A stretch of 64,000 nt of DNA from Chrysomallon squamiferum. Its lineage: Eukaryota; Animalia; Mollusca. Positions 10,969 to 40,889 of the stretch are shown one piece after another. The notes beneath the pieces are model-generated. The model did no database searches and was not told the DNA's origin. It saw only the letters and a list, made by a program, of their open reading frames with translations. Positions within the stretch are counted from its first letter, which is position 1. Every line of letters begins with the position of its first letter. The DNA lies in contig CM022665.1 in NCBI GenBank assembly GCA_012295275.1, positions 11,470,001-11,534,000 on the forward strand. Reading direction: 5' to 3'. The position numbers and the translations under genes were made by a program.

Positions 10969-13900
10969 ATAATAATAGTAACAGTAATTATAATAAGAAG
11001 AATAAGAAGAATAACAATAATAATAATAATAATAACAACAATAATAATAGTAATAATATTATAATAATAATAATAATGTTGATGATGATGATGATGAGAA
11101 GGAGGAAGATGATGAAATAATGAAAAAGTAACAAATCAACAACAAATGAGTTGTGAATGCTTATTCTGCTTTTGGTTGATGTTACATAATCAATTTAGGA
11201 ACAATGCGCTCCCCCTCTGAATGTTAGAAAGAAACCAGATGTATGCACAGGCCAAGTTCATTATATACAGAGGTAATCAGGTATTGCTGTAAACCAGGTT
11301 TTTCTACGAAATGGGAATTATACGAACTGGGAATCTACCAGATGGGAAGACACCGGTTCTAGGTATGATCAGAGATAAGATCTTCTATAAAGTATATATA
11401 AGATAGCACTTTAGTTCACTAGAAAACACAACAAAACACAATACACTTTGGAATCTGTATTAACCCTAAGCTGACAAATATATCTGCCACAGTTAAATAT
11501 CTAACAACCCAGAACTACTCACTTAATTAGTTAATCACTGGGTGTCTAGTTTACACAATATTCTAATCACTTCACCTTGATACAACACATACACAAGTGA
11601 TAACTGAGAAACGCAGCCAGGTGAACTTAATTAATAAAGGAAATACAACTCTATTCCTAACTGGTTAATTTTTAATTAACCCTTAACTACTCATTCAGTC
11701 ACCTTGTAATACAGAATTAATACTGGTACCTATCACAATAAAGACCATAACCTACGGTTTACCTATGTCCTATAGATGACTAGCTAAGCTTTAATAATTT
11801 TAGACAGTGAAGCTTACAATTTACTTCATCTTAATAATTTTGGTATAACAAAGTATTAAAATATTTAAGTCACATCAATCACATCAAGGTTATACAACAG
11901 AGCAGAAAATATAAAATTAGCAAGTCCTGTTGGACTAACCTTCCCTGGCGTGGTCTGGATGTCTCTCCACTGTTTCTCTCTAAATACTCTCTATTTATTA
12001 CAATTTAGAATATTGCCTCGGGGTACAAGGCAGTACCAAATACCTACAAGTGATATTTCCACAGCAACCCTGACAGCATATTTTCTAAGATGGTCAGACT
12101 TGCTGTCGCCAGATCGCAGACAATACCCTGGTAGTAAACAGAACTAGCGGATGTGTTATGTAATTACTGGCCATATGGCCTTCACATGTTCTACTTGTGT
12201 ATTGGTGGGGGCTGTCTGGAAGAGGCTTTATGTAACAAAAGTGCCCACTAAGTCTAAGTGCATAATGGGACTGCACTCTGCCCTCTAAAACAATTAATAT
12301 TGCCACAGGCAAAAAGAAATTAAGAGCATGTTCCATCACACAAAAGACAGTTGTACTGATATGGTAATGTACCACAGTAAAACATGACCCACCTGTATTT
12401 GTTTCAATATTTATTTACTTATTTATTTATTTACAGATAACTCTAACAGGAGTTTTCAGTGGATGTCAGATTGTTCTAGACCTCACCACAAGTGTGCCAT
12501 TCAAAAAGAAGTTGGAAATAAAGAAGAAAATAATTGAAAATGGAGGAATTGTATCATTCATTGTTACAAAAAAGGTATCATATGATGATGCACATTACAC
12601 TGCCATCAAAGTTTGTCATGATCTGTTTGTGAAATCTTTTCTGTGGAAAGGTTGATGACAATTATTCCTTTGCTGCTAATGTAAAAAATAAAGTTGGCAC
12701 AGTGATTTTTTCATGTTATAATCTTTACACCAAAAAACCCAAAGAACAATATAAAATAAAATTATGAAAATGTTATGAAGCGTTATACTGATTTACTGAA
12801 CATAGCTATATTTTTAAGAAATATTAAGACTGTCAATTAAATAATGTATATCAGTACATATTATTTTGATTTATGTTGTTATTTTATCAGTCAACTCATG
12901 TGGTTGGAAATGACCCATGCAAGTTTGATGTTTCCTACAAGTGTCAGATGGCTGTCAAGTACAACATTCCAGTGATCTCCCCTGAATTTATATGGGATGC
13001 AATAACAACAGGGAGACTGCCAAATCCTGATGATTACATAATTGGTGGTAAAAGCAAAAAATCTGAATTCAAATCTGGAAAAATTACAGGTGTTTATATT
13101 TCATAACACTTAGAAAAGTTATTTTATTACAAATAATTAAAAGCTTTTTACATTAATAAGATGGTAAATGTTAATATCAGATAATCCAGTTTCAAACATT
13201 TCACATGTCACAGTAAAACTATTGTATCTGGTGTTTGAAAGTTCTAGGCATTTGGTTCTTTTTCTCTGAGAAAATACATGTGCAGTATCCTTTGCTGGTA
13301 TTTTATATTTCACAAAGTAGCAGCAAAAAAAGGATTCCTCTCTCATTTTACCCTAATACAAAAATTATGTTATACAGTAAATGTTAACGGTAAAATGTAC
13401 TCAGGTGTAATTAAATACTCTATATATGTGTTTGCTGTAATCCTGGTCTGTTTAACATCTTCAGTACATGAGGTGACAGTTATGACTTTGACTTCCTCTC
13501 TGGTACTGTATTTATTACACTTTTATCAGATCCATACAATTCCTTGGCCTTGTCTGCTCCTACCATCATTCAAAGTTTTGTGTCAAACTGCTATATCCAC
13601 CTTTGTAATGAAGAAGCTAGACTATATTCATACAGTGATTTATTTGTTTAGATTGAATATGATAATAAAGAATATAATTTGGATCCATTGCAGACAGAGA
13701 AATCTGTATAATCAACTGTATTAATTTTTTTAATTTTTAATTTTTAATCCAGCATCTCATCCTAAAACAGGTGAGAAGAAGAAGGCTAATATCTTCTTTT
13801 CTGTCAGAGGTACAAAAGTCTGGAAACCATATGATAAAGATGCTCCATTCTTTGATGAGTTTTCTTTTGAAATTGCAAAATATGCAGCTTTCCAGGTAAA

Positions 13901-16900
13901 TAGATAAATATAGATGTCCATTTAGGTAAGAAAATTGGTTATTTTATTAAAAGAATTAGAAATGTGGGCATTTTAAATGTTTGTAATACATGAAAATTAT
14001 ACATTTCACATTTACAATATTTTTAATATAAAATGCATTCTAATTTTTGTAAAGTTTAAAATATGAACAATAGACGTTCCTCATTTATAGTATTTTTAAT
14101 GTAAAATTTAACTTAAATTTTCTCATGTTTAGAACAAGGATATTAGATAATTACCATGTTATTAATGTAAAAAGACATTTTTATTGTTTGTAACATTTAA
14201 AACAAGAATATTGGATGTTTCACATTTACAACATTGTGTAATATTTAAGGACAAGCATAATATAAAATACATTTTATTGTTTGTAATACTTAAAACAAGG
14301 ATAATAGATATTTTGCATTGACAACATTTTTTATATATAAAACAGATTTTAATGATGTTGTTATTGTTTTTTTAAATAAGCATAGTAGATGCTTTGCTTT
14401 TGCAATATTATTAATGTAAAATGCGTGTATCTTGATTGATGTGTGTAGGGATACAAGAAGAAAACAGAAACTCAGATATTCTATGTACTGGAATTGCATG
14501 TTGCTGATCCAAACTCAAAAAATGCTAAGGACAGGGAATTCAAATTCAGAATTTGTACACATTATGGTTCCTTAAAGGATATTCAGGTACATTCATCTCA
14601 GTTAATGCTCTATGCTGTGTACATATATAATATCATAGCATTAAAATTTGTCCACAGAACTGAAATATTGCTATACATTAAATATAAAAATAAAAGCAAC
14701 TTCAAAATTCTGCAAAACCCATAAAAATGAAATGCTGCCAACATTTTAACTTTCACAAAATTTGTCATATGAAATAATTACCTCTTGAAAAACTGAAAAG
14801 ACTAAATAAACAAAACAACAACAATGAAGACATTTCTAATCCTATATGTAGTCAATGGTTCCCAATCTTTTCACCACCAGTGAACCTTTTATTTAAATTA
14901 TACTTTTCCTTGGACCCTGGGTTTTGAAAGGTTTCTCAGTAAGCTGTAACTAAGTATATAATTTCCAGTTACAAATAAAACAGCCTTCAGACAATAAAGT
15001 TATTTACCTCTAAATTTATTGTAATAAGAACATTCCACTATGCAGTATAACCTAACAGACTTTTTAATGAATATCAGAGTGGTTTGATTTGGGAAGTGAC
15101 TTCTTCTTGTTGTTTTGAAACATATTTTTGTCTTTAATTTCAGGAAGCTAGTGAAGGGACCTATGAATATCGATATGCTCAAACAGCAGACTTGGCACTT
15201 GCCATATACAGCCAGCTCTGCAAAGACCAGACTGCTCCTTCCAAACAAATGAAGAAAATCGATGGTTGCCTGCCCACAAGAATTGGTTCACTTAAACTTC
15301 AGCAGGTTTGTTTTGAAATGCATAGAACCACAACATTCAGAAAGATGTATTTGATATAATTAATTATGAACTTATTAAATTACACATTTTGAAAGTAATA
15401 CAGATTTGCTCATGAATACAATTAAATTTGTTTGACAGCATTGGACCATTCAGTCACTGGATCTTATAATCATTTATCATTTGTGATTCAACTAAATTAT
15501 TATTTCTTAGGTGTCTGACTACTGTAGTTGTCTTCCCTTCATCTGAAATCAGAAATTCATTTTTTTCTTTATTTATTTATTTCAAGTTTTTTTGACAGTC
15601 GTGGTGGTGGTGGGAATATATAAAACTTTTTTGTAATATTTTTTAATTTATTTATTTATATATACATATTTATTTATTTATTTTATTTTATTTTTTTTTT
15701 TTTTTTTTTTTTTTTTTATTATTATTATTTTTTTTAGATTCAGCATCAGTGGTTAAATACACAGGTTTATGCTATTTAAAACTTCAAAGAAAATGCTTTA
15801 TTTTAATATCTGAATGTCAAACATTTTTCATCAAATTTTTGTATTTTGGAGTAATATTTACCTGTTAGTAGAAAAAAAAAGAAGAAAAAAAAAGACAAAC
15901 AAAAAATAAAACCTAATTTGTAAAATTTCAACTTAAAAAAGAAGTTTCTATATTTTCATTTTTTATTTTATTTTATTACTTCATCAGAGTAGTCATGAAA
16001 TATTTAATAACTAAGGAAAAAACTGGGTTTTTTTTATACCTTGCATTTATTTTAATATTCAGATGATATCAAAGCTGATGATTGATGATGAATCACTGGC
16101 ACCCACTGTTATCAACCTTGTTGAACATATTTGGCAGGAAGCTACTGGGGAGGTGGAAGATATAATTGCAACTGCAGTCAGCGAAATCAAATTGGAACAG
16201 GTCAGTTGGGTAAAAGTCAAAAATATTACTGAAGATGTGATAACCTTGGTAAAATGAATTGTTGTTTACAGACCATTTCAACTAATGTGCCATGAAGAAC
16301 AGAAGTGCTATCTCCAGTGTCATGAGACTTGCAACGCAAACATAATAATTAAAATTGTTAACTGCATGACTGGTGTTAGTCATATACTGACTAGGAATAA
16401 AGGGACAATTAAAATCTTGTTATAACTATTCCCATTTTACCAAATAATTATTTTTTAATGGTAAATCCACGTTCTCTTAAATTAATATTTTAATTACTAC
16501 ATTGTTCATTGTTGTAATCTAAATAAAATTTTAAACAGTAAACTCAGTCTTTTAATTGTTACATTATCTTTGTTGTAAATCCAAATAACTGATTTTGATC
16601 GTAATTCCTAGTTTTCTATGTTAAATCAGTCTGATAATTGTTACAGTTCATGATTCTTGTTACTGGTGATAAATAACAATTCCTAATAGTATATCCATCT
16701 TACAAATAATAATGGTAAATCTAAGGTAATACAGATATAAATGATAAATATAGTTAATATATTACAATTAATAATTGTTAATCCATATTATTAATAAATT
16801 ACAGTTGTGGATGGTAACTGTACATTATTAATATTGTTAAATTCATAATGAGGGTAATGGGGTAAATCTAATTTATTTAATTTATTCCAATTTTCAGTGA

Positions 16901-18137
16901 TAAATATTTGTTATTTTACTATATAGTTTTCATAATAAATCTTTCTTTTTTAAAAACAAATTTTTGTTTTTAATAAATAATAATTGATTTCATGTTGATA
17001 TTTCCCCTGTACTTTGATTAATATCCTGAAGTACACCATTCAGACTGAAACATGAAAGAATGTTTGCTTATTATCCTTTGCTTGAACAAATCTTAGATTG
17101 AAAAAGCAGAAGCCATCCTTCTTCAAATTCGAGAAGCTTTTGACAAGTCACTGGAAATGAAAACACTGATCAATGATTTTTACAATACACTACAACACAC
17201 AAATGAAATTGCAGAGAAGACTACAGTCACAAAAGCCTGGCTGGCGAAGAAGCAAGATCTTTGTCAAGTATATTTTTTAAATTTTACAGTTATTTTTTCT
17301 CGGATCATTTTAAATGATTTAGTGGATTAATATTTGTTTTTGAAAGTCCTGTTTTTTGGGGGTGGGTTAAAGTATATCTTAACATTTTGTACAATTGTTT
17401 TTCACAGATCATTTTAAATAATTTAGTAGACTGATATTTATTTTTGAAAGTTATTAAAAATAACTTTATCAAATATAATTTAACAATTTAAAGGATTCAT
17501 TCTCCTCAGATCTTTTTAAAATAATTTAGTGAACTTATACTGGTTTCAAAAAGTCCTGAAAAAAAAAAAACAACTATTTTATCAAGAATAATTTTAAAAT
17601 GAAACTTTGAATTTTTGTGGAATTACTTTAAATAAATTAATGGACTAATATTGGTTTTTGAAAGCTTAGTGATAAGAGTCAGACGTATAATTTTCCTTCG
17701 TTTGCTTTAGCTTATTAAAAATTACTGTCACTGTAAATGAGAGAAGACACTTGTTTTGATAAATAAACTTTTGTTCAATTATTTCAGCTTATCAAAGATA
17801 TGGTCTCTGTAAATGAGGCTACAAACTGGTCAAAACGAAGCAGTACTGCAGCAAAATACAGAGCATTGAGATGCAGGATTGAACATATGGACATTTCAGA
17901 TAGCAATCATAAAATGGTGAAAGATTTGGTAGAATCTTCCATAATTGGGTATGTTGACAGAACTTTTAATTTGTTTTTTTTAAATGTATTTATTTATTTA
18001 TTTATTTTATGTCTGTCTTTAATTTTCAGTATACTACCTTTTTCTTACTTTTTAATTGAATCCCTGGTACAATATTCTCCACATTATTATTTAAAAGTAT
18101 CAAAATTGTGATTATTACTACTCACTAACTTTTCAGG

Positions 18138-18172
<35 letters not shown>

Positions 18173-21100
18173 GTTAGTTATTACTATTGTTGTTTGAGAA
18201 AAAGAGCCAAAAAAAAAAAAAAAAAAAAAACAAACAATCCAAAACATGATAATTATCTTGTATATTTCTTATGTTATGGTTTTTTCCCTAACTGTTCAAA
18301 ACCTTCCATTTTCTTTTTTTCAGAGATCTCAAAATTGAAATCAAATCCATCTATCAAATTCACAGACCTGTCGAAGATAGCAGTTTTCTTCATGATATGA
18401 CCAACACTCAGCTACTATTTCATGCATCCAAAGCTGAAAATTTTGTTGGAATTCTTTCCAGGTGAAATGATGTAGTGGATCATTCAGTGTCATCTCTATC
18501 ACTTTTGGGGCATTTTTTGCACAGCCCTGTCAGATTTCTGTAAATTTTAATAAACCAATAGAGTTCCAGGAAAGAACATGTCCATCCTGTTGCTATATAA
18601 AATTTCATAGAAATTTGAGTGGGGTATGTTTTAGGTAATAGAGATGACATAGATAAGCCTTTTTTTCAAACAATAATATCATTTGCTTGGACCTGATACA
18701 TGAAGATGCATGCAAACAATTAGTGTTCTGTTCAAGCTAGTTTTATATATTCAAAGTAAAATGTAATGAATAAATTAATTTTTATTCATAAGAATTTCTC
18801 TTTTTTTATCATCTAATTTTATTTCTTATACATATGATTAATGGTTGCCTGTAATTTATTTTTCATCAGTTATTCAGTTATTGATCACTTACATATAAAT
18901 AGTACAGTAGTGTTGAGTATTATTTATGATCAGCAAACATCCATCACATTATCACATATCTTAGCAGTTCTTGTAGTTGAAATGTTTTGTTTCTCTTTAT
19001 TTTTACTGTGTTTTAATCCTACATACATTTTGTTCATTAAATAATATTATTTTTTAAACAAATATATAATCCATGACCATAAATTGATTATTTTACAGAG
19101 GCCTGTTACTGCCTAAAATAGTTGTTGATGATTATGGTGGATCTCGGACTGATGTTGGCATGTTGGGAAATGGCCTATACTTTGCTAGTTCAGCCAGGTA
19201 AGTGTGAAATAAATAAATGATAAATCTGTATTTAATTCATTTCAGTCACAATACACTAAGTCATAACAAGATATCTGGTGATCATACAGTACTGGGTATT
19301 GTCTACATCACCATAGTTCAAATGTTTTACATTTGATATGTAATATGGAATTAGACATAACTCATATATAAAGGATTTGCCACTTCAGACCATTTACTTA
19401 TTTCATATACATGTGATGTCAAATAATAATATGGTTAGGTGTTGTAGAATCAGTGTTCATTCATTTATTTTCATTTATATTAAAATGCATATTTATTTGC
19501 ATAATTGGCATTTGTCGTTATAAAAGAAAAAAAATGAGAGTAAAAATATAACAAAAAACCCCTCCAAATATGTTGCCAAATATTACTTGTGAACAAATAA
19601 ATAATGAGTTTTAGAAAAAACAAACCTCTGCCAAAATGCACATACTGATCCAAATGTATATTAATTTTGTTTTCCAGCACAAGTGCCAAATACTCAAAGG
19701 CAAGCAAGACCAAAGGGACACGACTCATGCTGATAAACAAGGTTGCTTTAGGCAGGTGTATGGATGTGTACAAACACAACACTGAACTAAATGGACCACC
19801 AGAGGGCTATGACAGTGTTCATGGAGTCAGAAAGACTGATAATAATGATTCAGATTTTGTGGTAAATTATTTGTTTTTCAGTTAATTAATTGCTGAAAAC
19901 ATTTGTGCTTGTGTGTTTTTTATGTGTGCATGTATATCTGTGAATATCTGTTTGTATATGTGGGTATGTACGTGTGTGTGTGTGTAACATGTGTGCATGC
20001 ATAGGTGTATATATTTGTATACATGCTTCTTTTGTATGCATGTATATTACAGTCATGTTTCTGTTACATATGGGTATGCGTCTGATAGATTTTAAGCCAT
20101 ATTATAGATGTTATATAATCTCCTTTTCTCACTGTAGGATGATGAGTATGTAATATACTCTCTCAGCCAGCAAAAAATCATGTATTTGGTTGAATTTGTT
20201 CTGGAAGGAGATACCATAACTAACATCAACATTGGAGAAACTGAGGAAAACCTGGATGAAGAAACACACTCAGACATCACTATCATAGGTTTGTTTTCAC
20301 ATTATACAATGCCAACAAAATCATCAGTAACTACCTTAGTAAGAAACACACACTGTAAAATAATGACTTATAGGTCTACAATTAAATATTTATTTATATG
20401 AAAACAAAGTTGAAAAATATAAAATAATAATAACACCAAATATTTATCAGTATAATTTATACAGGATAAAAAAACAGAAAATGTTTGAGTAATAAAATTT
20501 GGTTATTATGTTATGTATTTAATTAGATTATTATGTTGTATTTATTATATATTTAGTTTGATTATCATGTTGCATTACTATATTTTAATTTGATTATCTT
20601 GTTATATTTATTATATTTTGAGTTTGATCATTATATTTTATTCAGTTATCATTTATCAGCATATTTTAAGACCAGTACTGTATAAATGATGATAACACAT
20701 ATTTAAAAAAATCTAATTATCTAGATGTTCAAAAACTCCAAGAATTAGAGGATCCCATTTCAAAAGTGAAGTCAGGTTTGATCTGTGACCAGCAGGAGAA
20801 TGCAGTAGATCTTAAAGCTGTACATGTCAAAGCTAGACTTGTAGATTTGGCTTCAGAGGTAATGTTTCAATGCATATTTACAGTTTGTTTGAGAAAAACA
20901 AACAACTATGAGGAACTATGAATTATGTGTGCCAAGAAAATGAATATTGTTTCACAAGCCTTTTTCAAATTTATAATGCTATTCCACAAGAGATTTCAGA
21001 ATTGTTCAAATTGTGCATATGTTACCCTTAATCTTTCAGTCAATATGGGCAGACTTAAAAAGTTTGTGCAACTATCACCCTTAAACTTCAAACAAGTACT

Positions 21101-24100
21101 ACTAATAAATAAAAATAGATATTTATTATATAAAAGCATTTTTTGTTCAATTAATATATATTCAAATAATCCACCAATTCACAGGTTTTGCATTTTTTAA
21201 ATCTATTGTGATATGTTGATTAGTTTTCTTGTGCCTAATTTTATACTTTTTTGGTAAATAAGTGAAATCAAACAAATGATCACTGTAGCACTGTAGTTAA
21301 AAAACTGGCTCAGAATTTGATGGAATGGATATTTGAATCAGTCTTCTTTAATTTTTCTGTATTATTTTCCATACAAACCAGTGTTCCATGACTGATTTAT
21401 CAAAGGTTAAATTTACTATCTGTTATAGGAATGCGAATAAGGAAGGTTATTGACAGATTTCCTGTGATTCATTGAATTTTATTGTTGATTATCAATGACT
21501 GATACCACACAAGGAGTGCTGTTTCTCTCCAGAATGTATTTTAAACAAATTGATGCTAAACAAATTGTTATTGTTACTGTGTTATTATTATTATTATTAT
21601 TATTTAATTAATTAATTAATTATAATTATTATATTGCATTTTATTGTACTGATTGTATTGTATCATATTGTATTATATATATCATTTATCATATATAATC
21701 ATATCATTTTATATTTTATTATTATTATTATTATTATTATTATCTATTTTTTAATTTTAATTTTATTTCATTTCCTTATTTCTTTATTTCTTTTGTCCTT
21801 GCAGGTGATAGTCATGCAAGAGTACTCTAACAACTTGGACATTGCTGTTGAAGCAAAATTTATTTTTCCTCTGGATGACATGGCTGCAGTGTGTGGCTTT
21901 GAAGCTTTCATCAACGGCAAACACATAATAGGAGAAGTGAAGGAGAAGGAGACTGCTCATAAGGAGTACAAGAAAGCCATCAGTGAAGGTCATGGTGCAT
22001 ATCTCATGGACCGTGATGAAGAAACTCCAGTCAGTAATAATAATCATAATTCTAAAAAAAAGTAGTAATAATAACTCTTAATAACAAATAATAATAATAA
22101 TAGTAATAATTCGTTGTTGTATGGGTTGGATATATATATTTTGTAATTTGGTCATTATTGTTCTTATCATTTATTTTTATTTACTTTTATTTTTATTTTA
22201 CTTTTTTCCTTTTTGTTCTCTTTGCAGGATGTTTTCATAGTCAGTGTTGGTAATCTCCCACCAAAAGCGCATGTGCTAATTAAAATAACCTATGTAGCTG
22301 AATTACAGGTAGAAGGGGAGGTAATCAATTTCCGACTTCCTGGCAGTGTGGCACCATGGAAAGAGAACTCTGCTATCAAAGAAACTACACAGGTTAATGT
22401 TTGTTTTGATGGTAGACTTCCAGTTAATTTATTTGTTTTAAAAATCACCAATGTTTACTAACAGATAAGTTAGAAAATAAGTGAGGAGAAGTAGAGAAGT
22501 TACTTTCTGCCTTTCTCATGACATTGTTTTATAAGAGTAAAAGACAATACATGCATGTGCATGTGTGTGTGGGTGTGTGTGTTTGTATGTGTATCCTGTA
22601 TGTATTGTTGACATGTTTAACATAACTTGTTGTACATTCATAAATATAATGTTTATAGATATTTTCTTTAAGACTGTTTATATTTTAAAAATAAGTCACT
22701 GTGGTATATTTGTAGACTGAGCTGGGCACACACAAAGTACAGAGCGGTAAAACAACAGTTCAGGTATCCATTGACATGCCTTTCAATATCCACAGCCTTG
22801 AATGTCCCACACACAAACTCAGAATTAAAGTAAGAGCCTTATCTACTTATTGTTATAAATCTTTTTGTTTTCACTAAATAATTTGTTTTGAATGTATGTA
22901 TGCGTGTATTTATAAACATACATAACAGTGTAGGTAACTATTTATGTGCATAGTTCATATATCTGTGTGATTATCTGTATACACAGGCAATTGTGAATGT
23001 GTCTATGTATATTTACAATACTGTGAATATGTTATTCATATATAATGTTGACTATATCATCATATGTCTGTAGAAATTTGATTTTATATAATCTGTGTAT
23101 TTATCTTTGTAATATATAATAATATATGTGTATATCAATATAATTTATTCTTTATTAATATTCCTTCTTACGGTTTTATGTATATGTTGGTAAATGTCTT
23201 TACTTGTATATATCTAATTGGCTGTTTTTCTCTCAGAGAACTGACACCAAAGCTGTGATTGAGACGATGGAGAACCAGTCTTTTGATGATGGCTTCCTAC
23301 TGCTCATTGGTCTCTCAGAAATACATGTCCCAAGAATGTGGGTGGAGAATCATCCATCACAGCAACATCATCAGGTACATGCTGAAAGCAAGACAGGAGA
23401 AAGACAGACGACAGAGAAAGAAAGTCAGTGAGTGAAGAGTTAGTGAGTGAATGAGTTTGAGAGAGAAAGAGAGAGATTTATAGAAAGAGCAGGACGGTCA
23501 GACATAGACAAAGACAGAGAGCAAGACCGACATACACAGAAAAAGACACACAGAGAGAATTTGACTGAGAGTGAGTGTGTATAATTACTTTATTATAAAA
23601 TAATTAGCTTACTTAGCATAGATACACTTGAATAGTGTATATCGTGATTTGTCAAGAGTCTCTATTCAATGACATTAATTTTTTCAGTAGTCTCTTCTAT
23701 TAAATAAATGCTTTAATATTTATTATTTAGGCTTGCATGTTGACATTTTACCCAGAGTTTGAGGCAGGAGAGCAGAAGGACCTGGAGATTGTATTTCTCT
23801 TAGATCTCTCAAATTCAATGAAAGGATCAGCTCTTGAAGATGCCAAAAATGTTCTTTCTCTAATGTTGAGTCGATTGCCATCCCATGCTTTGTATAATAT
23901 TATTGTGTTTGGAACAGGTGTGTTAGACTTTGATGTTTTCTCATTGGTCAAAAAATTTAATTTTAATAAATAATAATGCATTTACTGATTTTGTTTTATC
24001 TCTGTGTAAAGAGAAATAAAGTTTTGGCATATTTTAAATGTTTATAATCTACAAATGTATAAATTTTCTTTTGCAGGGATTGTTTTATTTAATGACATTC

Positions 24101-26585
24101 TTGGCACATCTGTAATCAAAATAATTTGTGCCAAGTTATTCTCTATAAATTATCATAAATTTTAATTATGTTATATAATGTTTATATCATGATACAACTT
24201 CGTCACATGTTTTTTTTTATCAATAAATTATGAATGTTATATGTTATGTACAAGGTAATACAAGTTCATCAAAATAACCTTAAACATCTATTTAAAGATT
24301 TTTTAATAATATTTCTCTCTTTCTTTATATATTGTTTTCTTTTTTCTTTTTAAACATCCCAAATTGTAATATTATAAAGCTTTATATAAAGTTAATTCTG
24401 ATTACAGTCACTTACAAGTAACTGTTAAAATAACTGATCATCCATTGCATAACTGAATTGTATATATTTGTTGTTATTGATATGTTTTATTGTTACAAAT
24501 TTCAGCATACAGTGAGCTATTCCCAGTTAATGAGGCCAACACTCCTAGCAATACAGCCAGGGCTCGCAAATTTATAATGGTAAATAAAGATAATGTTAAA
24601 CAAAAATGGATGAACAAATGTTTATTAATGGTTCCCCAACATATCTGATGAGATAATTTTCAATTTTGTGGTCATTTTTCTCTTAGGCAAGTTTTTATTT
24701 AAAAAAAAAAAAAATGAACCTTGATTACTGGCATTTTTTTATTTTTATTTTTTTTAGTGTTTGTTTTTGTATGAAACTATGTCAGCCATCACAATCCAAA
24801 TGAGCTTGTTATATTATTAGGAAAATGTATATAGGTTTTCACACATTCTCTTCAACTTTTTGTTTTTTCATTTTATTTTCATAAATATCAATTTTTTTCA
24901 AAGAGAGAATTATATTATTTTTTTGTAGGATGCTGAAGCCAATCTTGGAAATACTGATGTTTTCCAACCACTACATTCAAATTACCTACTTGAGTCAGAG
25001 AGTTCCGTGAAAAACATTTTTCTTATCAGTGATGGACACATCAACAATGAAGATGCTGTCCTCCAAGCTGCTTTAAACCATGCAGCACACTCGAGACTCT
25101 TCACATGTGGAGTCAGGTACACACTTTAATTTAACTGTCACAATGTTACAGATAAAATCATATCACAATCCTACAGTTACCAAAAACAAAAAACACAAGA
25201 TGATTTTATGTTGTTTAATCCTTTTTTATCTGGCAAGACAGTGTTTATTTAATGCTAATTATTTTGTTGTAGTTCATAATTATTGACATTATTGTAGTTA
25301 GTGTCGTTACGTCAGTGGCAGACATTACACTATGGTGCTTCTGCTTCCTTCCCTTTTGATGTCGGAAATTTGATATTCTATCTATTTATTTATTTTTGCA
25401 TTATTATTATTATTAGTGCAATAGTTTTAATTGAAAAGCACATTCTCTTTTAGCTCAACATCCAATGTACATTTACTTAGATCATTAGCTAGAGTTGGAG
25501 GTGGAGCATTTGAATTCTTTGACAGAAAGGCAAAGTCAAAATGGGATAGGAAGGTAACCATAACTGATCTAAAGCATATTAACAATATTTATAAAATATA
25601 AATTACAGAATTCTATTTAAAAAGTATAATAATATTTAATTTAACAATATTGTGTTTAAAAAGTATAACAATAATTAACAATATTATGTTTAAAAAGTGT
25701 AACAGTATTTAATTTGACAATATTCTGTTTAGAAAGTTAAACATTATTAATAAATTCTGTTTATATATTACAGTCAATTTAGAAAGTATTACAATGTTTA
25801 AATTACACTCTTTTTTAAATTTATCAGCTGGAATAGCTTACAAATTACTGTATTTTGAAAATCATTCTTTGTGTCAGTTTGTTCATTAATACAAAGATTC
25901 ATTTAAATATTAGAGTGTTGTCCTTACAAATAAAATTCATTTCTCAGATAAGTGTTTTGTTACAGCATTCTTTGAACAAATTACAAAAGGCCAACCAATT
26001 TATTTATTTATTTATTTATTTATTTTTGTTTCTTCTTTTTCTTTACAATAATAACTAAATGCTATATGTTTTATATTCAGGTAAAAAACCCAGAACAAAT
26101 AACTAAATGTAAGACTCTTATTATTCAGGTAGAAAGATGAGGTATAATGATAACTAAATTCCAGACTCTTGTTTTCTGAGGTTCAAAAAAAAAGAAAGAA
26201 GCCCAGATATGATAACTAAATGCCAGACACATATTACTCAAGTACAAAACCTGGATATAATTGATAGTTATATTCTTATTATTCAGGTGAAAAACCAGAT
26301 ATAATAATAACTAAATACCAAATACTTATTATTTAGGTGAAAAACCAACTGACCAAGGCAGCCCAGCCAGGTTTGACATCTGTTTCAGTTGAGTGGCGAC
26401 AGTTTGATGAAGATCCAGACAAGCTGCCACAAGCTCCTCGGCAAATTACATCTCTGTTCAGTGGATCACGACAGGTTGTCTATGGATATGTACCAAACTG
26501 TACCATGGTTGGTAGTTACTGTAAATTGTAATACGTTTTTCATTCATTTTGTATATGGACAAACCTTCAAGCAGAGCATACACAC

Positions 26586-26646
<61 letters not shown>

Positions 26647-29600
26647 CACACACTGTGAATACATATATACATACATACATACATACATACATACCTACAT
26701 ATGTACAGATATACATACCTACATATGTACAGATATACATACATGCATACATGTATACATATATACACACACATATATAAACATTGACATACTGACAAAA
26801 ACAACATGCTTACAAACCTTAACATATACATATATAAACAATACACAGCCTTCTTTTTATTTATTTTGGTTGATATTATTTTTATTTTTTTTATTATTAC
26901 TTTTACTGTTACAATCATTATAACATTTATTAATTTATTACTTTTTTTAATTTTATCTTTCTATATATATTTTTACTTTATTTTTTTAATTATTATACAT
27001 TTGTTTTTTCACAGGCCACATTAAAAGCTGTAGTAGGTGGACAAGAAGTTTGTACAGTTGTTTCAACTTCAGATCTCAGCATCACAGAAGGACTGGTAAT
27101 AATTACAGTGATAATTCATAAATCCAAACGTGTTAAGTTGGAATGTCTCCAGCTATTTATCTGTAAAGTTCTACTACAAGCAATACTTAATGGAAATTAA
27201 GTTATTAGCTAAATTGTTAGAGTATTGGATTCTCAAGGTTCCTGGTTCAAAACTCTTTGCAGAGGTTCACTAAACTGTTAGAAAACAATTGAGTATTACT
27301 GATCCACATACGTGTGTTCTTCATTTTTAAAGAATTATTTGCAAAAGAGATAGTGGCCTTCATATATTACATTCAAATATTATAAACTATTCAATGCAAA
27401 AGACACAAATGAGAAAAAACAGAAGGAAAAATTGACACAGATGCTTAAAGAAGACAAAGAGGACAAGAAATTGAGAGAGAAAGGAAAAAGTTTGAGAGAA
27501 AGATGGAAAAATATGGAATAAAAGAAATGGAGACGGATGAATAATATGAAGGAAGGTTGATAGAGAAAGCCCTGTTTAAACAAATGAAACTGAGAGAGAA
27601 CAAGAGGGAGGGAAGAATGGATATTAGAATATCAAGATAGAAATAAAAAATATATAGAGATCCTTAAATATTAAAATTTAAAAAGCATGATGTATTTTTC
27701 TGTGTATGGAAGCTAAATGAAACAAAGATTAAATTATTTGTATTGTTCTGCAGACTGTTCATAGACTGACTGCCCGGGCTATAATAAGAGACTGGGAGGA
27801 TGGCATGCTTTCTTCAGACCGTACCAGGCATGAGGTATGTGGTTATTTTATATAAGAAAATGTCCAGTGTAGTCTAATTTTGTGATCACACTGTAATAAA
27901 AACTTTAAATTTAGTGTGAACATAAAATGCATGTTTGTTGACAACTGATCACATACAGACCCAACTTGATGTTGACCACAGTAGTCACTTATTTTCCTAG
28001 CTGGATGTAGACCACACTGGACATTTACTTACTTCGTCCAGTATAGACCATACACTTACTTACTAGTAGAATGTTTACTTATCTAGTTGGATGTATATTA
28101 CACTGGACATTTAGTTACTAGCAGGATGTTGGTCACATGGTCACTTCCTTATCTAGCTGGATGTTGACTTACCCTGATCACTTACTTACTTGGCTTAATG
28201 TAGACCAAATTGGTCACTTACTTGTGTAGCTGGATGTTGAAAATATTATTCCCACTGCTTCCATTCCTGACATCCAGAATCTTAATCTTTTGTTACTTGC
28301 TATTTTCAGATGTTGAAGATGAATCTGAAACAATACATCATTGACTTGAGCACAGAATATTCTATTGTCACCCAGTTTACAAGTTTTGTAGCAGTGGAGA
28401 AACGAGATGAGGTTGGTTGTTTAACATTTGTGTTTCTATTTTCATTAAAAAATATTTTTGCATTAATCAAAACTGTATTCAGTCCATGATGGAACAGTTA
28501 TTTCTTAAATAGACTACATGGAAAATGTAAACAGTACCTTGAGGCATTGTGATGTTAACACATAATTAGGTGTCTGGCTTTTCTTTTTTTTTTTTATCTT
28601 GATGATTTAAGAGAGAAAAATGGTTACTGCCAAGAACAAGTAATTCTTTATGTTGACCTTCTCATAAACATGAAAGCATATATCATAATTTGATAAATCA
28701 ATGGAGACACCGAAAATGATTATTTTTCACCTATGATCTTTCAGAACACTGAATTACAGCCCACTTAAAAATGACTCTGAATCCTATCGTTGGTAAACCA
28801 TCATAAATAAATAAATATAATAAAGCTACAATGAAATAAAACATAAAGAACTGTAATGTAATATAATGTAATATAATGAAATGTAAATTATAAAAAAAAT
28901 AATAATAAATTACAAAACATGAATTCAAAATGGTGTATAATTTAAAAAAAAAAAAAAAATTGTTGTTGTTTTTTTTTTTTTTTCTAATTTTTAATTTTAT
29001 TTTATAATTTCAGGATGAAAAAGCAGGTAAATGGACCAGTACAGGACCAACTATGTTCCAGCTTGTTGAACAGGAGTGTGCAGATATTTTGCCATACTTG
29101 TCCTGGATAACAGACAAAGATGACATTATGGAGGTCGTACAAGTGAGCATTATTTTTATATATAAACATGGAGAATTGGGGTTTAATGGATAGGAATGGG
29201 AATGGCTATTTTGAGTATATTTGTTTTTATGATAAGTGTTTATCTGTGTTAAGTGTGTGTGTGTCTGTGTAATGTAAATGGATGAATATGTTTAAAGTGT
29301 CAGTGGTTGTGTTAAGGAATATTTGTTTTTAATGAAAGAATAATTTTGTGTTTATTCATCTGTCCTGTGGTTAGAAACAGAATATTGTGTGTACTAAATT
29401 GACAAAAATAAACTAATCACATTATCACTATCAGTGAATGATATAGATTGAAATGTCAAAGTTAAGTGTTTTCAGGTGATCTGTTAAATCTGGTTCTCTC
29501 TAAGTAATGTGGTCATTACTCCCTTCAGTGCCACAGAACTCAAACTTTTTTTATCTTTTGTATCCAGTTCTTGCACAAACTAAAACAACATATAGTTATA

Positions 29601-31347
29601 AGTGACCCAGAAAGTGAGGAAGAATGTGTGTACTGCACATACATCATACACACACACACTCACACACACAAACACACACACACACACACAGGCATTCCTT
29701 GCCTTCTACATACATTATATATAATTTCCTTAAGTCCATAGATGAATACCTACATATGTACATACAAATCTACTCAAATACACACACACATTCTTATACA
29801 TATACACATTAGACTACATACCTATATACACACATACATACACACATCCATACACACATCCATCTATCCATCCATCCATCCATCTGAAAGCCTGTCATCT
29901 ACACACATGCTTACTTTACCTTCATTATACAAAGTGCATCAGTTTAACGATTATTATTTGTCAAATATAAAGTTTGTGTTTTAAAACTTTAAGTAATATT
30001 CTGCTGTTATTTTGATAGAGGAAAAAAACTGAAGAATATGCAATGTAGGATGCTAATATCACTGTACTTAATAACAAGACTAATTAATCAGCCAAAACAG
30101 TTTATTTGGCTGAACCTGTTTGTTGTACTCAAGCAAAACCTGTATTTTTCTTTCAAGTCTTTTTTTTTTATATTTTTATTTAATATAATTTTTTTTTTTT
30201 CAGAAAAGTCATATTATGCCATTATTAGGTGAGCATTTCTTATTGTTTGAGAGAGGATGTAAGAATTGTGCATAAAAGGATCTTTGGTGGTATATATTTT
30301 CTTATGCTAGTATTTTAGTTCTTACTGGATCCCAGTCTTTGCTAATAACAAATCATATAATAAAATAATATATGGAGGCTGACATTTTCCTTTTTTATTA
30401 TATCAATTCATAAAGGTATGTAAAAATAAAAGAATTTAAATTTTAAAAACAAATATGTAAAACAGGTAAATTATTGCCTTATCTTCAATCACACTATGTT
30501 CTGACATTTCCAAGCACAAAATAATACCACAGTAAAATAGAAAACATCCATAAACACACAAGCTTTTTTATTTCATTGACACATACTTCATTATTAGCAA
30601 AGACTGGCCATTAGAGTGGAAGTATTCCAAACATAGGCCAGATATTTTGTATCACCAAAGTGACACTTTAACTTCCTACAGTTCCGAATGATGTGAGACA
30701 AGTGACATTAAAAACACTGACAAGCAAATCAGTTGAATTTTCACTTCTTGCCTCAAACACCATTGCTGATTTTAAAGCTGACTTACAAGCAGTAAAGGGA
30801 ATTCCTACTAACCAACTAAGACTGATATACAGAGGCAGACTGCTTGTTGACAGTCACACTCTGGCTCATTGCAATATAACAGACACATCTGTGGTTCATC
30901 TTGTACTCAGATTAAGGGGAGGTTGACCACTGCTCAGAGCTGATTCAGACAGAGCAATGGATAGAAGATCATTTTTAAGTGTTGCTTTTGAACTAAGTGG
31001 AAATGGTAGGTTTAGAATGTATGGTTTGAGAAAGAGATATGATTATACTGTGTTTACACCATTATTTCTGAGCAGAGTTGTAAGTTGCACATGATAGTCT
31101 ACTTTATTTCAAAACATCTTTTACTTATGCACCTTCTCACCAACAGGCTAATTGCACCACTGGCATCATCAGTGCCAAACAGACAGGTACTTTACTACTG
31201 ACTCATTAAAACATTTTATTACTACTGCATGCATTGTTATTTTGATAGCGGAAAAAATTGAAGATGATGAAATGCTGACAGAGCAAAGTGACTCAGAAAG
31301 TGAGGAAGAATGTGAGTACTGCACATACATTACACACACACTTACAT

Positions 31348-31382
<35 letters not shown>

Positions 31383-31674
31383 GGCATTCCTTTCCTTCTA
31401 CATAAATGGCACTATAAACACATCAGTTACAGTCTTAATTTCCTTAAGGTAATTTACATACAAAATATCTAATTAACAATAACAGTTATTATTTGTCAGA
31501 TATAAAGACTGTGTTTTAAGTAATATTCTGCTATTATTTTGATAGATCAAGAAACTAAAGCATTGGCAATCTTTGATGATGAAGATTATGAAAAAAATGC
31601 CATAGGTGAATATCTATCCATCAGTCCATAGATGAATACCTACATATGTACATACAAATGTACACAAATATACA

Positions 31675-31717
<43 letters not shown>

Positions 31718-34700
31718 ATAAGTACATACACACTAGACTACATACCACTAAACTACATTACACTACACTGAACAACATTGCATTACACTTCATACATACA
31801 CACATCCATCCATCTGAAAGCCTGTCATCTACACACATGCTTACTCTACCTTCATTTTAAAACTTCATCAGTTTAATGATTATTATTTGTCAAATACAGT
31901 GGATGCCTTGACTTATGAGTTTAATTGTTCCGTGGCCGAGCTTGTAACTCAAATCTGCATGTATATCAAATCAATTTTCCCAACTGAAATTAATTGAAAT
32001 ACCTTTATCCATTCCAGCCCCCTAAAAACCACCCCATTTTGTTTTGTAGCGTGTTTTTAAATAAGAAAAATGTATTTATAAATAACAAATATTGTATAAA
32101 AACACAAAATAAAATAGAATGTAAAGAAATAAATTGGTTTTGTAAAGTGTATTAATCTTGGACATCAGACAAATTATTTTAACACCTTTGGTTGGAGTTA
32201 CAGCCTTTATCAACTCCTTCTGCTTCAGTATGATACTATGCTCGTACTGCTTAGCCAAATCGACTACATGCACAACGCTCATATTTTTTTATGATTTCAT
32301 GTTTTAATTCAATGGACATCATCCGCTTCTTCTTCTCAGCACTGTCCTTTACACTCACTTTCTTAGGATCCATGGTCATAAAAAGAAATTTGGCAAAATT
32401 CTGCACAAAACATGAACACACCACAACAGAGATGCTTCTGCAGTGAGGTAATTATGTGAAGTAAACGAGTGAGATGCAGGATGCTGGCCAGATGTTGTGT
32501 TGTTTCTTGCACTGAAACTTATTTGTAACTCGGATTTTGGCTGGCAACTCAAAGCACAAAGTCAACTATGCGACTGCTCGTAACTTGGAAAACTCATAAG
32601 TTGGGGCACTCGAAAGTCAAGGTACCACTGTATAAAGTTGTGTTTTAAAACTTTAAGTAATACTCTGCTCTTATTTTGATAGAGGAACAGTATGATGAAT
32701 GTGCAGTGTATGGTGCTAGTGAATTCTCAGAAAGTGACAAAGGTGAATATCTATCCATCAGAATCTTTGGTGGTATATATTTTCTTATTCTACTATTTTA
32801 GTTCTTACTGGACCCCAGTCTTTGCTAATAACAAATCATATAATAAAATAATATATGGAGGCTGGCATTTTCCTTTTTTATTATATCAATTCATAAAGGT
32901 ATGTAAAAATAAAAGAATTTAAATTTTAAAAAACAAATATGTAAACCAGGTAAATTATTGCCTTATTTTCAATAACACTATGTTCTGACATTTCCAAGCA
33001 CAAAATAATACCACAGTAAAATAGAAAACATCCATAAACACACAAGCATTTTTATTTCATTGACACATACTTCATTATTAGCAAAGACTGGCCATAAGAG
33101 TGGAAGTATTCCAAACATAGGCCAGATATTTTGTATCACCAAAGTGACACTTTAACTTCCTACAGTTCCGAATGATGTGAGACAAGTGACATTAAAAACA
33201 CTGACAAGCAAATCAGTTGAATTTTCACTTCTTGCCTCAAACACCATTGCTGATTTTAAAGCTGACATACAAGCAGTAAAGGGAATTCCTACTAACCAAC
33301 TAAGACTGATATACAGAGGCAGACTGCTTGTTGACAGTCACACTCTGGCTCATTGCAATATAACAGACACATCTGTGGTTCATCTTGTACTCAGATTAAG
33401 GGGAGGTTGACCACTGCTCAGAGCTGATTCAGACAGAGCAATGGATAGAAGATCATTTTTAAGTGTTGCTTTTGAACTAAGTGGAAATGGTAGGTTTAGA
33501 ATGTATGGTTTGAGAAAGAGATATGATTATACTGTGTTTACACCATTATTTCTGAGCAGAGTTGTAAGTTGCACATGATAGTCTACTTTATTTCAAAACA
33601 TCTTTTACTTATGCACCTTCTCACCGACAGGCTAATTGCACCACTGGCATCATCAGTGCCAAACAGACAGGTACTTTACTACTGACTCATTAAAACATTT
33701 TATTACTACTGCATGCATTGTTATTTTGATAGCGGAAAAAATTGAAGATGATGAAATGCTGAGAGAGGAAAGAGACTCAGAAAGTGAGGAAGAAAGTGAC
33801 TCAGAAAGTGAGGAAGAAAGTGGCTCAGAAAGTGAGGAAGAATGTGAGTACTGCACATACAACACACACACACACACACAGGCATTCCTTTCCTTCTACA
33901 TAAATGGCACTATAAACACATCAGTTACAGTCTTAATTTCCTTAAGTCCATAGATGAATACCTACATATGTACATACAAATCTACTTAAATACACACACA
34001 CACAAACACACATTCTTATACATATACACATTAGACTACACATCTCTAAACTACATTACATTACACTACATTGCACAACATTGCATTACACTACATACAT
34101 ACATACATACATACATACATACATACATACACACATCCATCTATCCATCCATCCATCCATCCATCTGAAAGCCTGTCATCTACTCACATGCTTACTTTAC
34201 CTTCATTTTAAAACTGCATCAGTTTAATGCTTATTATTTGTCAAATATAAAGTTTGTGTAAAACTTTAAGTAATATTCTGCTGTTATTTTGATAGAGGAA
34301 AAAACTGAATTCTTTAAAAAAAAAAAAAAATGTATTTTGTTTTTTTTAATTTTTAAATTTTATTTTATTTTATTTCCTGTAATTATATCACAATAATCTA
34401 TATACATTATATGAATAGATAAAAAACATAGAAGTCATTAGAAAAGAAAATGCTCTTTGCCTTATGGGCTAGTCACTCTTTTATATACGTCTTTAGAAAA
34501 GTGACAAAAGAACATGTAACAGCTTTTGGTAAACAAGTCATGAGATTGGTTGGATTGGGAAATGGTCCTATGCTTTAACAATTGAGTCTGGCTTTTCCTA
34601 GTATATCATAACAGAAATCTTGATTACTTCTGGTATCTTTTTTTTTATATACACATATATATATATATTTATACAGATATCACATTTTATTTTTATTTAT

Positions 34701-37292
34701 TTTCTTGTTCCAGCTGAAACGCTTTATGAGAATGCAGAAGAAGATGGTAAGATCATAGTTATCTTTTCTTTTATAAAAATATTTATGATCTGTCATCATT
34801 AATGACATTAAAATAATAGTGTTACTCTGAATGCTGTTGTTTTATTCTGGGACTGCAACATCATCATATACACAGTGGACTGATATCTGTATTTTTTATG
34901 TTATACATATATAAAATACAGTTATCAATGTGTTCACACACACACACACACACTTTTTACAGTGAAATGATCCAGTTCTGATCAAAGAAGACTAAATCAG
35001 TGTTACTAATCAAGATTCAATAGCCAAAAAAATTAACAGAACAATGCAGAATATATTTAGACTATTTCTTTTTATCACCAGAAGTACACTGTAAGCAGTA
35101 ACATTAGTTAACAATTATTTTGCTTCTTTAATTTTTATTTTTATTATAAATGCTATGTAACTGTCTAAAAGTAATCCTACTTTTACTAAACAGTAATATT
35201 TAAAATACCAGTACCTGAATTGGTTAACTAAGATGATACTGACTAAGTTATTCACATGTAACAAAGAGGCTCATTCTCTTCTGGTTTTGTTTCAGGACGA
35301 AGAGAAAAAGAAAGAGAAGAAGAAGAAGAATTGGTAGAATCTTTTTCAAGAGGATCAGAAGAATTCACTGAAGTTGGGTCGTCAGTTCCTCGAGCTGTAT
35401 CAAAACAAGTTCCCCAAGCTCAAGAACCAACCTCTCAGACTGTATCAGATGTTCCCGCCAATGCCATGCCAGTGTTATCTAAATCCATAATGGCATTGAA
35501 AAGAAGCAAAATTATGCGAAAAGTATCATATGGAAGAGAGGATACAACTAGCCTGTTTGAACAATCTGATCCACAAGAGGAAATAGCAGTCAAAGGTAGG
35601 TCTGAGCATTCTGAGCCTGGGATAAGGTTTAAGAGTATGGAAGAAAAACCAGTTGCAGAGTTTCAGTCTAGGTTTTTTTCAAGGAAGGTATCAGATAGTT
35701 AAAGAGGAACAATACCTGTAATGGTTGACATAGATGATACTGACTAAGTTATTCACATGTAACAAAGAAGCTCATTCACTTCTTGTTTTGTTTCAGGACT
35801 AAGACTAAAAAAAGGAGATGAAGAAGAAGAAGAAAAAATGAAAGATTATTTTTTAAGAGCATCAGAAGAATTCATTCAAGTTGGGTCATCAGTTCTTCCA
35901 GCTGCATCTAAAAGTTCAAAATCACTGGCATCCAGAATTTCTGACTCTGCTGTATCAGTTGGGAAAAGAGGAACAATGGGAAAAGAGAAAGCATTATTTC
36001 CAAAAGCATCATTTCAAATGCAAAAAGCAGAAATTTATAAACCTGTGGTAAAGCCTGTTGCAGTGTGTAGTTCTTATTCATCAAAAGCAGGTCGCGTATC
36101 CTACACAGCCATGTCAATAGAACAACAGTCATCACCACCTGCACCACCACATGTACCAAAACGTGTACAAAAAGTGTCCAACCTATCGTTATCAGCTTTA
36201 TCACAACCCCAATACCTATCAACACACTTTGATATAACTCAACAACAACAGTCACCACCACCTGCACAACCACCTGCACGACCACCTGCACCACCACCTG
36301 TATCACCACCTGTACCACCACCTGTACCAGAACGTGTACGAAAATTGCCCAAACTATCGTTATCAGCTTTATCACAACCCCAATGCCTATCAACACACTT
36401 TGATATAACTCAACAACAACAGTCATTACCACCTGCACGACCACCTGCACGAACACCTGTATCACCACCTGTACCACCACCTGGTACAGAACGTGTACGA
36501 AAATTGCCCAAATATCGTTATCATCTTTATCACAACCCCAATGCCTATCAACACACTTTGATATAACTCAACAACAACAAAGTCAGATGCACCCAGACCT
36601 CGACCACTCTCAGGTACAGCTTCAGAACAATGGCATAGACATTGTGCATCTTTATCGGAAGAAGTGTATGATCAAATTCAGATGCAACCAGACCTCGATG
36701 AAACAAACACATACACTGATGTTATGGACTTGATTAATGAACAGACCACTGTAAGTGTTACAATTTAGTAAATAGCTCTTCACAACACACACACACACAC
36801 ACACACACACAGATAAATACGTACACACACATATAGATACAGATACACATACATTCATACAGTCATAACCATACATGTATACACATGCACTGTGTGTGTG
36901 TATATTATTATTATTACAACACAAAACTATTATAATTGATCCCATTTCTATTTTTATGTAAAACAGTTCTGTCAGATCTTTCCTTTTTGTGATAATGTTT
37001 TTACATTTCATTGACAGGATGGTTATTGGGAACTAAAGGATGATCTTGACTGTTTACTCAGAAACATTCTGCAGAAAACTGGACTAAGTACACTGAGTAA
37101 GAAAAAAATGTACTATCTGTCAGAAAACTTTGGGGTGGTCATAAAGTATCTGACAGTTTAAAATATTTCCATATTTCCATTCTGTTTGTTTCTTTATTAT
37201 TATGTTTTTTAAACTTATTTATTTTGCTAGTTAGATTTAGTTAGTTATGAATATTTATGTTTATTATTTAATTTATTTATTTATATTTTACC

Positions 37293-39980: not shown

Positions 39981-40889
39981 TATTTTTAGCACAATTTACA
40001 ACAGCATCATACCTAATTATAATGACCATGCAGATAATCAACAAGATAAAACACTGGGATCATTATTATGAATTAAAATGATGGTCTGTAATTATTCACA
40101 GACAAACAGACAACAGGACATTATTATCTATTTTCTGAGGATTGGGTTGTATGTATAATTTAAACATGCATTGTCCAGCCCTGCCAATGTCCGGTGGCAA
40201 GTATAACTAAAATCCCAATTATATGGATAAAAAATATTCTATCAAATTTCCGTTAGGTACTGCTAGTCTCATGGGCAATGCAAAAGTTCACTTGTTCAGT
40301 AAGAAATCTAATAGAACAGCTATTTAAAATGCTTTCAAATTCGGGTAAGTCATAGGAGAAAGTAGATGTATGTTAAGACTTGGGTAAATGATTTAGAATA
40401 ATATCTGAAGAAACAGGAAATGATGTTACTTTGTTGAACATAGAAAGATGGGCAAATAGATATATTGAGACAAATAGACATATTCAAAGAATAGATACAG
40501 AAAACAGACTGTAACAATGCTATACATTTTATTCAGAAGTAATGTATTATAGTTTATAGAATTAATCCTAAGTGCTACGTTATGGCCATTTCCCAATCTT
40601 GCAAGTGCTCCATATCTGGTTTATTAAAAGCAGTTAACTTTTAATGCATTCTTTTGCTGGCTGCTACTGTTATTGTATTATAATCATCATCATTGTCTTC
40701 ATCAGCAAGATCATCACTATTATTATTATTACAATTATTATTGCTATTGTTGTTATGACTATAGCCCTTCAACTACTGTTGTTATTAATAAAACTACAAT
40801 TATTATTATTAAAACCATGAATAATCTTTGTACAGCTAACAGAATAGGGCCAATAATGATCATAGTAGTTGTAATAAAAATAGATGTTA

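Follow-up and report, generated by a model that had tools for sequence, protein, structure and literature searches.

A duplicated ubiquitin-like exon skipped in the PARP4 linker of Chrysomallon squamiferum and its possible ancestral role as an uncleavable bait

What vaults and PARP4, the vault-anchored ADP-ribosyltransferase, are for is a long-open question, and the linker of the vertebrate protein, which has no known partner, is where positive selection is confined, in a single exon (Daugherty 2014, PMC4038475). It has also been suggested that viruses cleave or modify the linker (PMC10450202). A stretch of 64,000 nucleotides (nt) of the snail Chrysomallon squamiferum (assembly GCA_012295275.1, contig CM022665.1, positions 11,470,001 to 11,534,000 of the forward strand; hereafter the window) contains a PARP4 gene whose linker region holds two ubiquitin-like open reading frames (ORFs), each stopping directly after LRLRGG, which raises the question of what a ubiquitin is doing inside PARP4. 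A preliminary description of the window proposed a splice switch from a vault-docked PARP4 to a vault-free, self-conjugating form, which would be striking if true; the current evidence is against it. We favour a different reading, to which we give a probability of roughly 0.55: the ORFs belong to a duplicated, inherited ubiquitin-mimic exon that is skipped, and the ancestral role of this exon would have been that of an uncleavable bait for ubiquitin-targeting enzymes, not ligation.

The host gene was identified through an exon-by-exon match with its homologues. Coding exons 1-27 (12361..29142, plus strand; a homology-guided spliced model based on tblastn of homologues, in which the first coding exon, of 3 nt at 12361, is inferred) encode 1238 amino acids (aa) that comprise the BRCT, central PARP catalytic, VIT and VWA domains of a clade 5 PARP with its ITIH-like core. 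The model is 77% identical over these 1238 aa to PARP4 of Gigantopelta aegis (P0008), the best identity being 93% in the VIT exon, and its catalytic H, Y and E motifs are intact (LLFH, G.G.YF, DDEY). The gene is thus the PARP4 of a gastropod near Gigantopelta aegis, and its earlier identification as PARP4 holds.

Both ORFs (30672-30926 and 33156-33410, plus strand) lack an in-frame ATG, have a stop just upstream and end HLVLRLRGG-TGA, all as previously described. They match ubiquitin in Pfam (E 3.3e-22 for copy 1 and 9.9e-23 for copy 2) and align to it without gaps at 47% and 49% identity respectively; since even 47% is reached without gaps, the ubiquitin fold is plain. Among random 240-nt frames in the region, the stop-free share is 1.7%. 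The copies differ by one codon (Leu/Ile) and derive from one event, a tandem duplication of 1.19 kb in the PARP4 linker, whose first unit (30277..31448, plus strand), made up of the ubiquitin-like exon and an acidic micro-exon, is 95.4% identical to 32760-33946. Hence the two ORFs are present as reported but, being one tandem duplication, are not independent observations. An assembly artefact was rejected as the source of the duplication, as both copy-specific upstream flanks occur in independent sequencing runs.

An acceptor (...ttcctacag|TT) at 30682 and at 33166 opens in phase 1 and fits the upstream 25-nt exon 30204-30228, in agreement with the preliminary description. Read as an alternative last exon, the ORF would end a vault-free PARP4 of 1327 aa (copy 1) or 1388 aa (copy 2) in a free LRLRGG, which would be charged by UBA1 and ligated to targets. 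An E1 can charge N-terminally extended ubiquitin, the acceptor is in phase, and the frame stays open to HLVLRLRGG, as had been claimed, while the proposed length of about 1337 aa is corrected to 1327 aa by our model. The stop also stands right after GG in both copies. A further donor, missed in the preliminary description, lies downstream: a phase-1 site at 31005 (AATG|gtaggt) scores 4.0, against 2.5-5.5 across the gene's own donors, and its use would make 30682-31005 a frame-preserving, phase 1-1 cassette of 324 nt with an internal stop (80 codons to LRLRGG, then TGA at 30924-30926). The equivalent exon of copy 2 would span 33166-33489, with its TGA at 33408-33410 and a predicted donor at 33489. 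Under the 50-55-nt rule, a stop that far before an exon junction stands in the context of nonsense-mediated decay; because the TGA of copy 1 lies 79 nt upstream of a good donor, inclusion of the exon would most likely trigger decay, which speaks against a conjugatable isoform. A weak alternative donor exists at 30921 in copy 1, and splicing from it to a candidate exon at 31147 would again yield GG-stop, in favour of such an isoform. Two 40-nt stretches (31147-31186 and 33631-33670) have AG/GT ends and begin GC TAA; entry to the first in phase 1 after GGA G would restore GG-stop, and for neither stretch was an RNA joint found among those listed.

Five sequencing runs cover the stretch, four of them RNA runs from one study and one of unrecorded kind (X5). 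Runs X1, X2 and X3 (RNA) and X5 were compared as assembled contigs over 29930-31325; such contigs drop rare forms and cannot show transcript ends, and contig depth cannot rank the parts. Run X5 covers introns, has no GT..AG joint and behaves like DNA; like RNA runs, it contains both copy-specific flanks of the duplication. The sole RNA joint listed, 30228>31249 (GT..AG, depth 75.7, run X1), leads from the 25-nt exon to the acidic micro-exon and skips copy 1. In run X2 a loose end matching 32713-32740 joins the acidic exon, equivalent to 32742>33733, and so bypasses copy 2. From length arithmetic, record 5 of X1 and record 17 of X3 appear to pass from acidic exon to acidic exon without the ubiquitin exon. 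The contigs of X2 and X3 go on into exon 34714, and record 3 of X1 has 313 nt before 30204, as against 312 nt for the three upstream exons. Among the joints and loose ends listed for the three RNA runs, none leads into 30682, the proposed entry site of copy 1; the ubiquitin exon is covered by unspliced contigs only, the X1 record 30107-31249 (depth 19.6) running unbroken across the acceptor. Run X3 is without cover over 30682-30917 and the X2 contig 30722-30881 has a depth of 6.2 against 3.4-3.7 beside it; neither was used as evidence. The main form in the sampled RNA, in all three runs, skips both ubiquitin copies.

Two further elements of the proposed switch are affected by these contigs. 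The ATTAAA after each copy had been offered as poly(A) support and was rejected in this role: the hexamer has a density of 1.47 per kb over the window, the two copies share it through the duplication and thus provide one observation, and the contigs of X1, X2 and X3 continue through the site at 31205. The stop after LRLRGG is polymorphic. It is present in the RNA contigs of X1 and X3, while in the X5 contig T30924C turns TGA into CGA; the same contig has AAA (Lys) at the codon for the ubiquitin core residue I30.

A stop in a decay context also admits the view that this is a regulated poison exon, which would tune the level of PARP4 through nonsense-mediated decay, its protein product being irrelevant. 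Both splice sites score inside the gene's own range, the stop lies 79 nt before the donor, and such transcripts would be too rare to form contigs. Against this view, the stop is polymorphic, the duplication is recent and there is no sign of selection on the splice sites, and we regard it as very unlikely.

The origin of the exon is clearer. The window domain is 58% identical to the ubiquitin domain of Gigantopelta PARP4 compared with 47% to ubiquitin itself, and the two PARP4 domains form a sister pair with a support of 0.96 in a tree of 26 ubiquitin units over 76 columns, in which deep support is weak. In Gigantopelta, RefSeq isoforms X1 and X2 carry the domain and RefSeq isoform X3 lacks exactly that 102-aa block, which includes 20 residues beyond GG; the block is the counterpart of the window's 324-nt phase 1-1 exon 30682-31005. 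That the ORFs are part of an alternative exon, as first suggested, is therefore borne out in a relative. The exon is very probably an inherited optional cassette of the PARP4 linker, to judge from these alignments. A processed pseudogene or dispersed repeat, named in the preliminary description as what would undo its proposal, was rejected as the source, given the closer relation to the Gigantopelta PARP4 domain, the same slot and the matching N-terminal boundary. The PARP4-ubiquitin architecture is not peculiar to this genome and is visible in public Pfam annotations: PF00240 is found in 13 of 120 listed homologues, all of them molluscs with the domain in the same linker slot, so that the domain-architecture search suggested earlier finds the combination already annotated.

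How the domain ends in these relatives bears most directly on its use. A ubiquitin-free PARP4 query against 1.84 billion representatives listed 150 proteins, 14 of which carry ubiquitin, among them those of Sinanodonta, Euglena gracilis and two Diplonema species. (When the ubiquitin-like domain itself was the query, polyubiquitins dominated the matches, which were used only for canonical ubiquitin and for a junction control.) Once a truncated model and five entries that are isoforms or alternate models had been removed, 24 embedded units in 23 proteins were available from molluscs, Euglena, Diplonema and other eukaryotes. In 12 units the junction is GG-Pro, 6 are without Gly76 and 6 are unlocked; none ends in GG-stop, and the free or cleavable GG of a Type I ubiquitin-like modifier is thus not conserved in the relatives. 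In the control, Pro occurs at 0 of 949 ubiquitin junctions in 125 non-PARP4 proteins, and at 0 of the 150 among these that lack a following Met. Cleavage at Ub-Pro is inefficient for most deubiquitinating enzymes (PMC4522658). Within the 12 mollusc units the tail is far better kept than the whole domain (identity 0.90 against 0.53 overall), and 11-12 of the 12 retain L8, T9, G10, R42, G47, V70 and R72-G76. The enzyme-facing surface is thus conserved, while processing is predicted to be blocked.

These junctions complete the case on the conjugatable isoform. In its favour stand the open, in-phase exon and the retained R42, R72, R74 and I44 patch; the alignment confirms the three arginines that the preliminary description had singled out. 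Against it, all joints seen skip the exon with no spliced entry listed in 3 of 3 RNA runs, RNA runs on through ATTAAA, the stop reads CGA in X5, 18 of 24 relatives are locked (by Pro or by loss of Gly76) with 0 of 24 ending in GG-stop, and a good donor follows the stop, as expected of a transcript bound for decay. The domain of relatives is internal and mostly predicted to be cleavage-resistant, and the proposed switch to a vault-free, self-conjugating PARP4 must be considered quite unlikely.

We suggest instead that copies of proteins commonly targeted by pathogens are displayed on the linker, which runs from the ITIH-like core to the vault anchor. An enzyme that binds, cuts or modifies such a bait would be trapped at the vault or ADP-ribosylated; alternatively, its action on the bait would release or activate PARP4. 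In this snail, the exon would have lost the Pro lock and now has a TGA followed 79 nt later by a good donor, and the bait may be silenced or decaying while the main mRNA continues to the vault-binding domain; such silencing or decay of the exon is likely. The side suggestion in the preliminary description of a decoy role in immunity agrees with this putative bait.

Embedded ubiquitin and the other linker fragments described below could instead be modules for host partners or regulation, serving proteasome or p97 targeting or docking, with the local exon skipped. Uncleavable ubiquitin fusions act as degrons, and K27 is kept in 12 of the 12 mollusc units; in the same units K48 is kept in 7 and K63 in none, which does not favour such modules. 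Perina 2014 took 14-3-3, actin and ubiquitin-related domains as pathway links (PMC4245714). Many of the inserts are nevertheless partial and their make-up shifts between lineages, and this explanation appears to us unlikely.

The bait reading gains in scope from the remainder of the linker. In 160 of 270 homologues the chain runs on for 100 aa or more after the core, and these proteins contain ubiquitin (28), the 14-3-3 C-terminus (17), the actin N-terminus (12), a P-stalk motif (9), HSP70 (6), the H3 tail (6), synaptobrevin (5), EF-hands (4) and SNAP-25 (1), in counts that include isoforms and six self-matching query proteins. The two motif patterns, that of the P-stalk among them, had 0 matches in 213,616 core residues. 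Independent checks recovered SNAP-25 (E 3.3e-4), the H3 tail (E 3.4e-4) and 14-3-3 (E 2.3e-5, ranked below two engineered TPR proteins); the P-stalk was weak against the PDB (E 0.34-0.57) and rests on Pfam PF00428, positive in the PARP4s of sponge, dictyostelids and Euglena, together with the motif counts. Pfam also reports HSP70, actin, synaptobrevin, EF-hand and Ras in various PARP4s. At least one host-protein fragment is present in the linker of 25 of 30 named invertebrate proteins compared with 0 of 31 from vertebrates. Many of these inserts cover only part of the protein they resemble (actin residues about 2-55, the C-terminal helices of 14-3-3, one SNARE helix, some 18 residues of the H3 tail), and their make-up varies between lineages. 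Because the inserts recur in the same slot in sponge, cnidarian, mollusc, hemichordate and protists, chimeric gene models are unlikely as their general cause. Microbial toxins and effectors often have ubiquitin, 14-3-3, actin, SNAREs, HSP70 and others as their targets or cofactors. In further PARP4-like proteins (P0337, P0339, P0341, P0355, P0298 and P0336) the core is followed by a kinase, a Slu7 fragment, Ras-family domains or FG-nucleoporin-like repeats, which extend the list of candidate baits.

A broader reading, which we advance tentatively and hold to be possible rather than probable, would make PARP4 an ancient eukaryotic decoy sensor, its linker an evolving bait array and the vault a device that traps enzymes of pathogens. 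Locked ubiquitin, 14-3-3, actin, SNAREs, HSP70, calmodulin-like EF-hands, the H3 tail, the ribosomal P-stalk and Ras would then be tethered inside the vault beside the ADP-ribosyltransferase, from euglenozoans and amoebae to molluscs, and this snail would show one bait duplicated, switched off by splicing and lost. In non-vertebrates, at any rate, the linker is readable: copies of ubiquitin and of other housekeeping proteins can be recognised in it, and the ubiquitin repeatedly carries an end that enzymes of the host should leave uncut. This points to a concrete and testable job for the linker, that of a bait, with the candidate baits named.

Several points weigh against the bait reading. The role is a prediction from sequence pattern, and the 24 units share ancestry, so that the counts are not independent events; the 76-column tree fits one ancient capture as well as several. 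Six units are unlocked, namely those of five heterobranch snails (GG-G or GG-L, with 36-45% identity to ubiquitin) and one GG-R. Three models stop shortly past GG, after 3, 4 and 11 residues. The homologues are gene predictions, some of whose fusions could be chimeric. Within the window, the domain keeps L8/I44/H68/V70 and R42/R72/R74 in both copies with clean frames, the stop falls exactly after GG in both, and the linker exons 35298-35594 and 35799-36140 gave no mimic in a PDB search. The changes in X5 come from one collapsed contig, which weakens the case for relaxation, and assembled contigs from one study would miss induced or tissue-specific inclusion, which weakens the case for skipping.

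The rest of the linker could be followed to the vault-binding end, all on the plus strand. The micro-exon 30204..30228 (25 nt) ends in phase 1 and is joined to the acidic micro-exon of copy 1 (31249..31311), which is supported by spliced contigs of X1, X2 and X3 and a frame check. A 60-nt micro-exon at 31546..31605 is matched by an X2 loose end from 31546, and a second of 60 nt at 32683..32742 by the X2 loose end that joins the acidic exon. The acidic micro-exon of copy 2 (33733..33843), with expanded SEEE repeats, runs on in the RNA contigs into a 33-nt micro-exon at 34714..34746, which loose ends of X2 and X3 match from 34718. Two long low-complexity exons follow in the gene model (35296-35595 and 35797-36750), and the MVP-interacting domain (MINT/MVPID) is encoded by exons 37018-37087 and 37556-37977. 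This C-terminal domain was matched by a purpose-built profile of 21 homologue C-termini (E 3.2e-6 at 37531-37974; E 0.44 for the DGYWEL exon) and by neither Pfam nor PDB searches, and the frame into it is broken in the assembly. Near 36512 and 36580, in exon 35797-36750, two 1-nt losses affect a Pro/Gln-rich repeat, in its third unit; they break the frame to MINT, giving a stop at 36564-36566 and 1711 aa. They are likely to be assembly errors, although they may represent a real truncating allele, which we do not favour. The 14-3-3-like block of Gigantopelta PARP4 (residues about 1225-1350) had no match in the window. MINT has been placed on the vault wall (PMC12280208; bioRxiv 2026.05.01.722283). 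In the sample of PMC12280208, the PARP4-binding residues of MVP occur only in vertebrates, and vault docking of the snail protein is thus a prediction.

The linker region shows other signs of rearrangement. Older partial duplications around the acidic micro-exons, within 29600-34309, have 73-87% identity, and two paralogous long-exon starts within 35209-35907 have 83%; these indicate that exons of the linker were duplicated more than once. In run X5 positions 30209 and 30211 differ, each with a change of amino acid in the 25-nt exon, and the repeat length of the acidic exons varies between runs, a weak hint of fast linker turnover. Between the two copies lies a probable DNA-transposon remnant (31895..32632, strand unassigned, ends approximate) with inverted arms at 31904-31922/32590-32608 and 31906-31920/32608-32622; it had no Pfam match.

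Elsewhere in the window, exons of an ashwin gene (7479-8443, minus strand; Pfam PF15323, E 2e-10) lie head-to-head with PARP4, and a single ORF of 515 codons at 61767-63311 (minus strand) encodes a glycosyltransferase of family 92 (E 1e-37). A MITE-like element of 329 nt (40888-41216) has 19-nt terminal inverted repeats (95%). Two tandem arrays are also present, one degenerate, of 3.9 kb with a period of about 40 nt and rich in T/C on the plus strand (42983-46844), and one with a period of 26 (49756-50171).

Mollusc PARP4-ubiquitin fusions, the GG-Pro lock and the bait reading were not found in titles and abstract openings of the PARP4 literature, among which subscription journals were few, and more such fusions may be listed in the figures or supplements of Perina 2014. 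In its text, Perina 2014 describes clade 5 PARPs of amoebae, lancelet, sea urchin, Capsaspora and Salpingoeca that bear additional 14-3-3, actin and ubiquitin-related domains, with ubiquitin-related domains in two Acanthamoeba proteins (PMC4245714), i.e. the same kinds of appended domain as here. Beyond that text are the mollusc and euglenozoan ubiquitin inserts, the GG-Pro lock, the H3-tail, P-stalk, SNARE, HSP70 and EF-hand fragments, the cassette splicing and the proposed bait role.

Compared with PARP4/vPARP as known (clade 5; BRCT-WGR-HD-ART, an ITIH-like region, a disordered linker and MVPID/MINT; Citarelli 2010, PMC2964712, for the standard architecture), the window gene shares the core, the catalytic motifs and the C-terminal MINT, while vertebrate PARP4 differs in a linker free of recognisable host-protein fragments. 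With Type I ubiquitin-like modifiers and their precursors (ubiquitin, NEDD8, ISG15, polyubiquitin and the ribosomal fusions), the window domain has in common the beta-grasp fold, the LRLRGG tail with its C-terminal Gly-Gly, the E1 contact residues R42/R72/R74 and 47-49% identity to ubiquitin; unlike them, it has no start codon of its own, and the junctions of its relatives are predicted to resist processing. The closest parallel to the putative bait linker is offered by the integrated decoys of plant NLRs (NLR-IDs) and by tripwire linkers of the NLRP1 type. There, too, a conserved, immune-linked scaffold holds host-protein copies in one variable slot, and such copies are found in the PARP4 linker across lineages. 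PARP4 differs from the NLR-IDs in that its scaffold is a vault-anchored ADP-ribosyltransferase instead of an NB-LRR protein, that several short baits would be carried per chain and that its sensing is putative.

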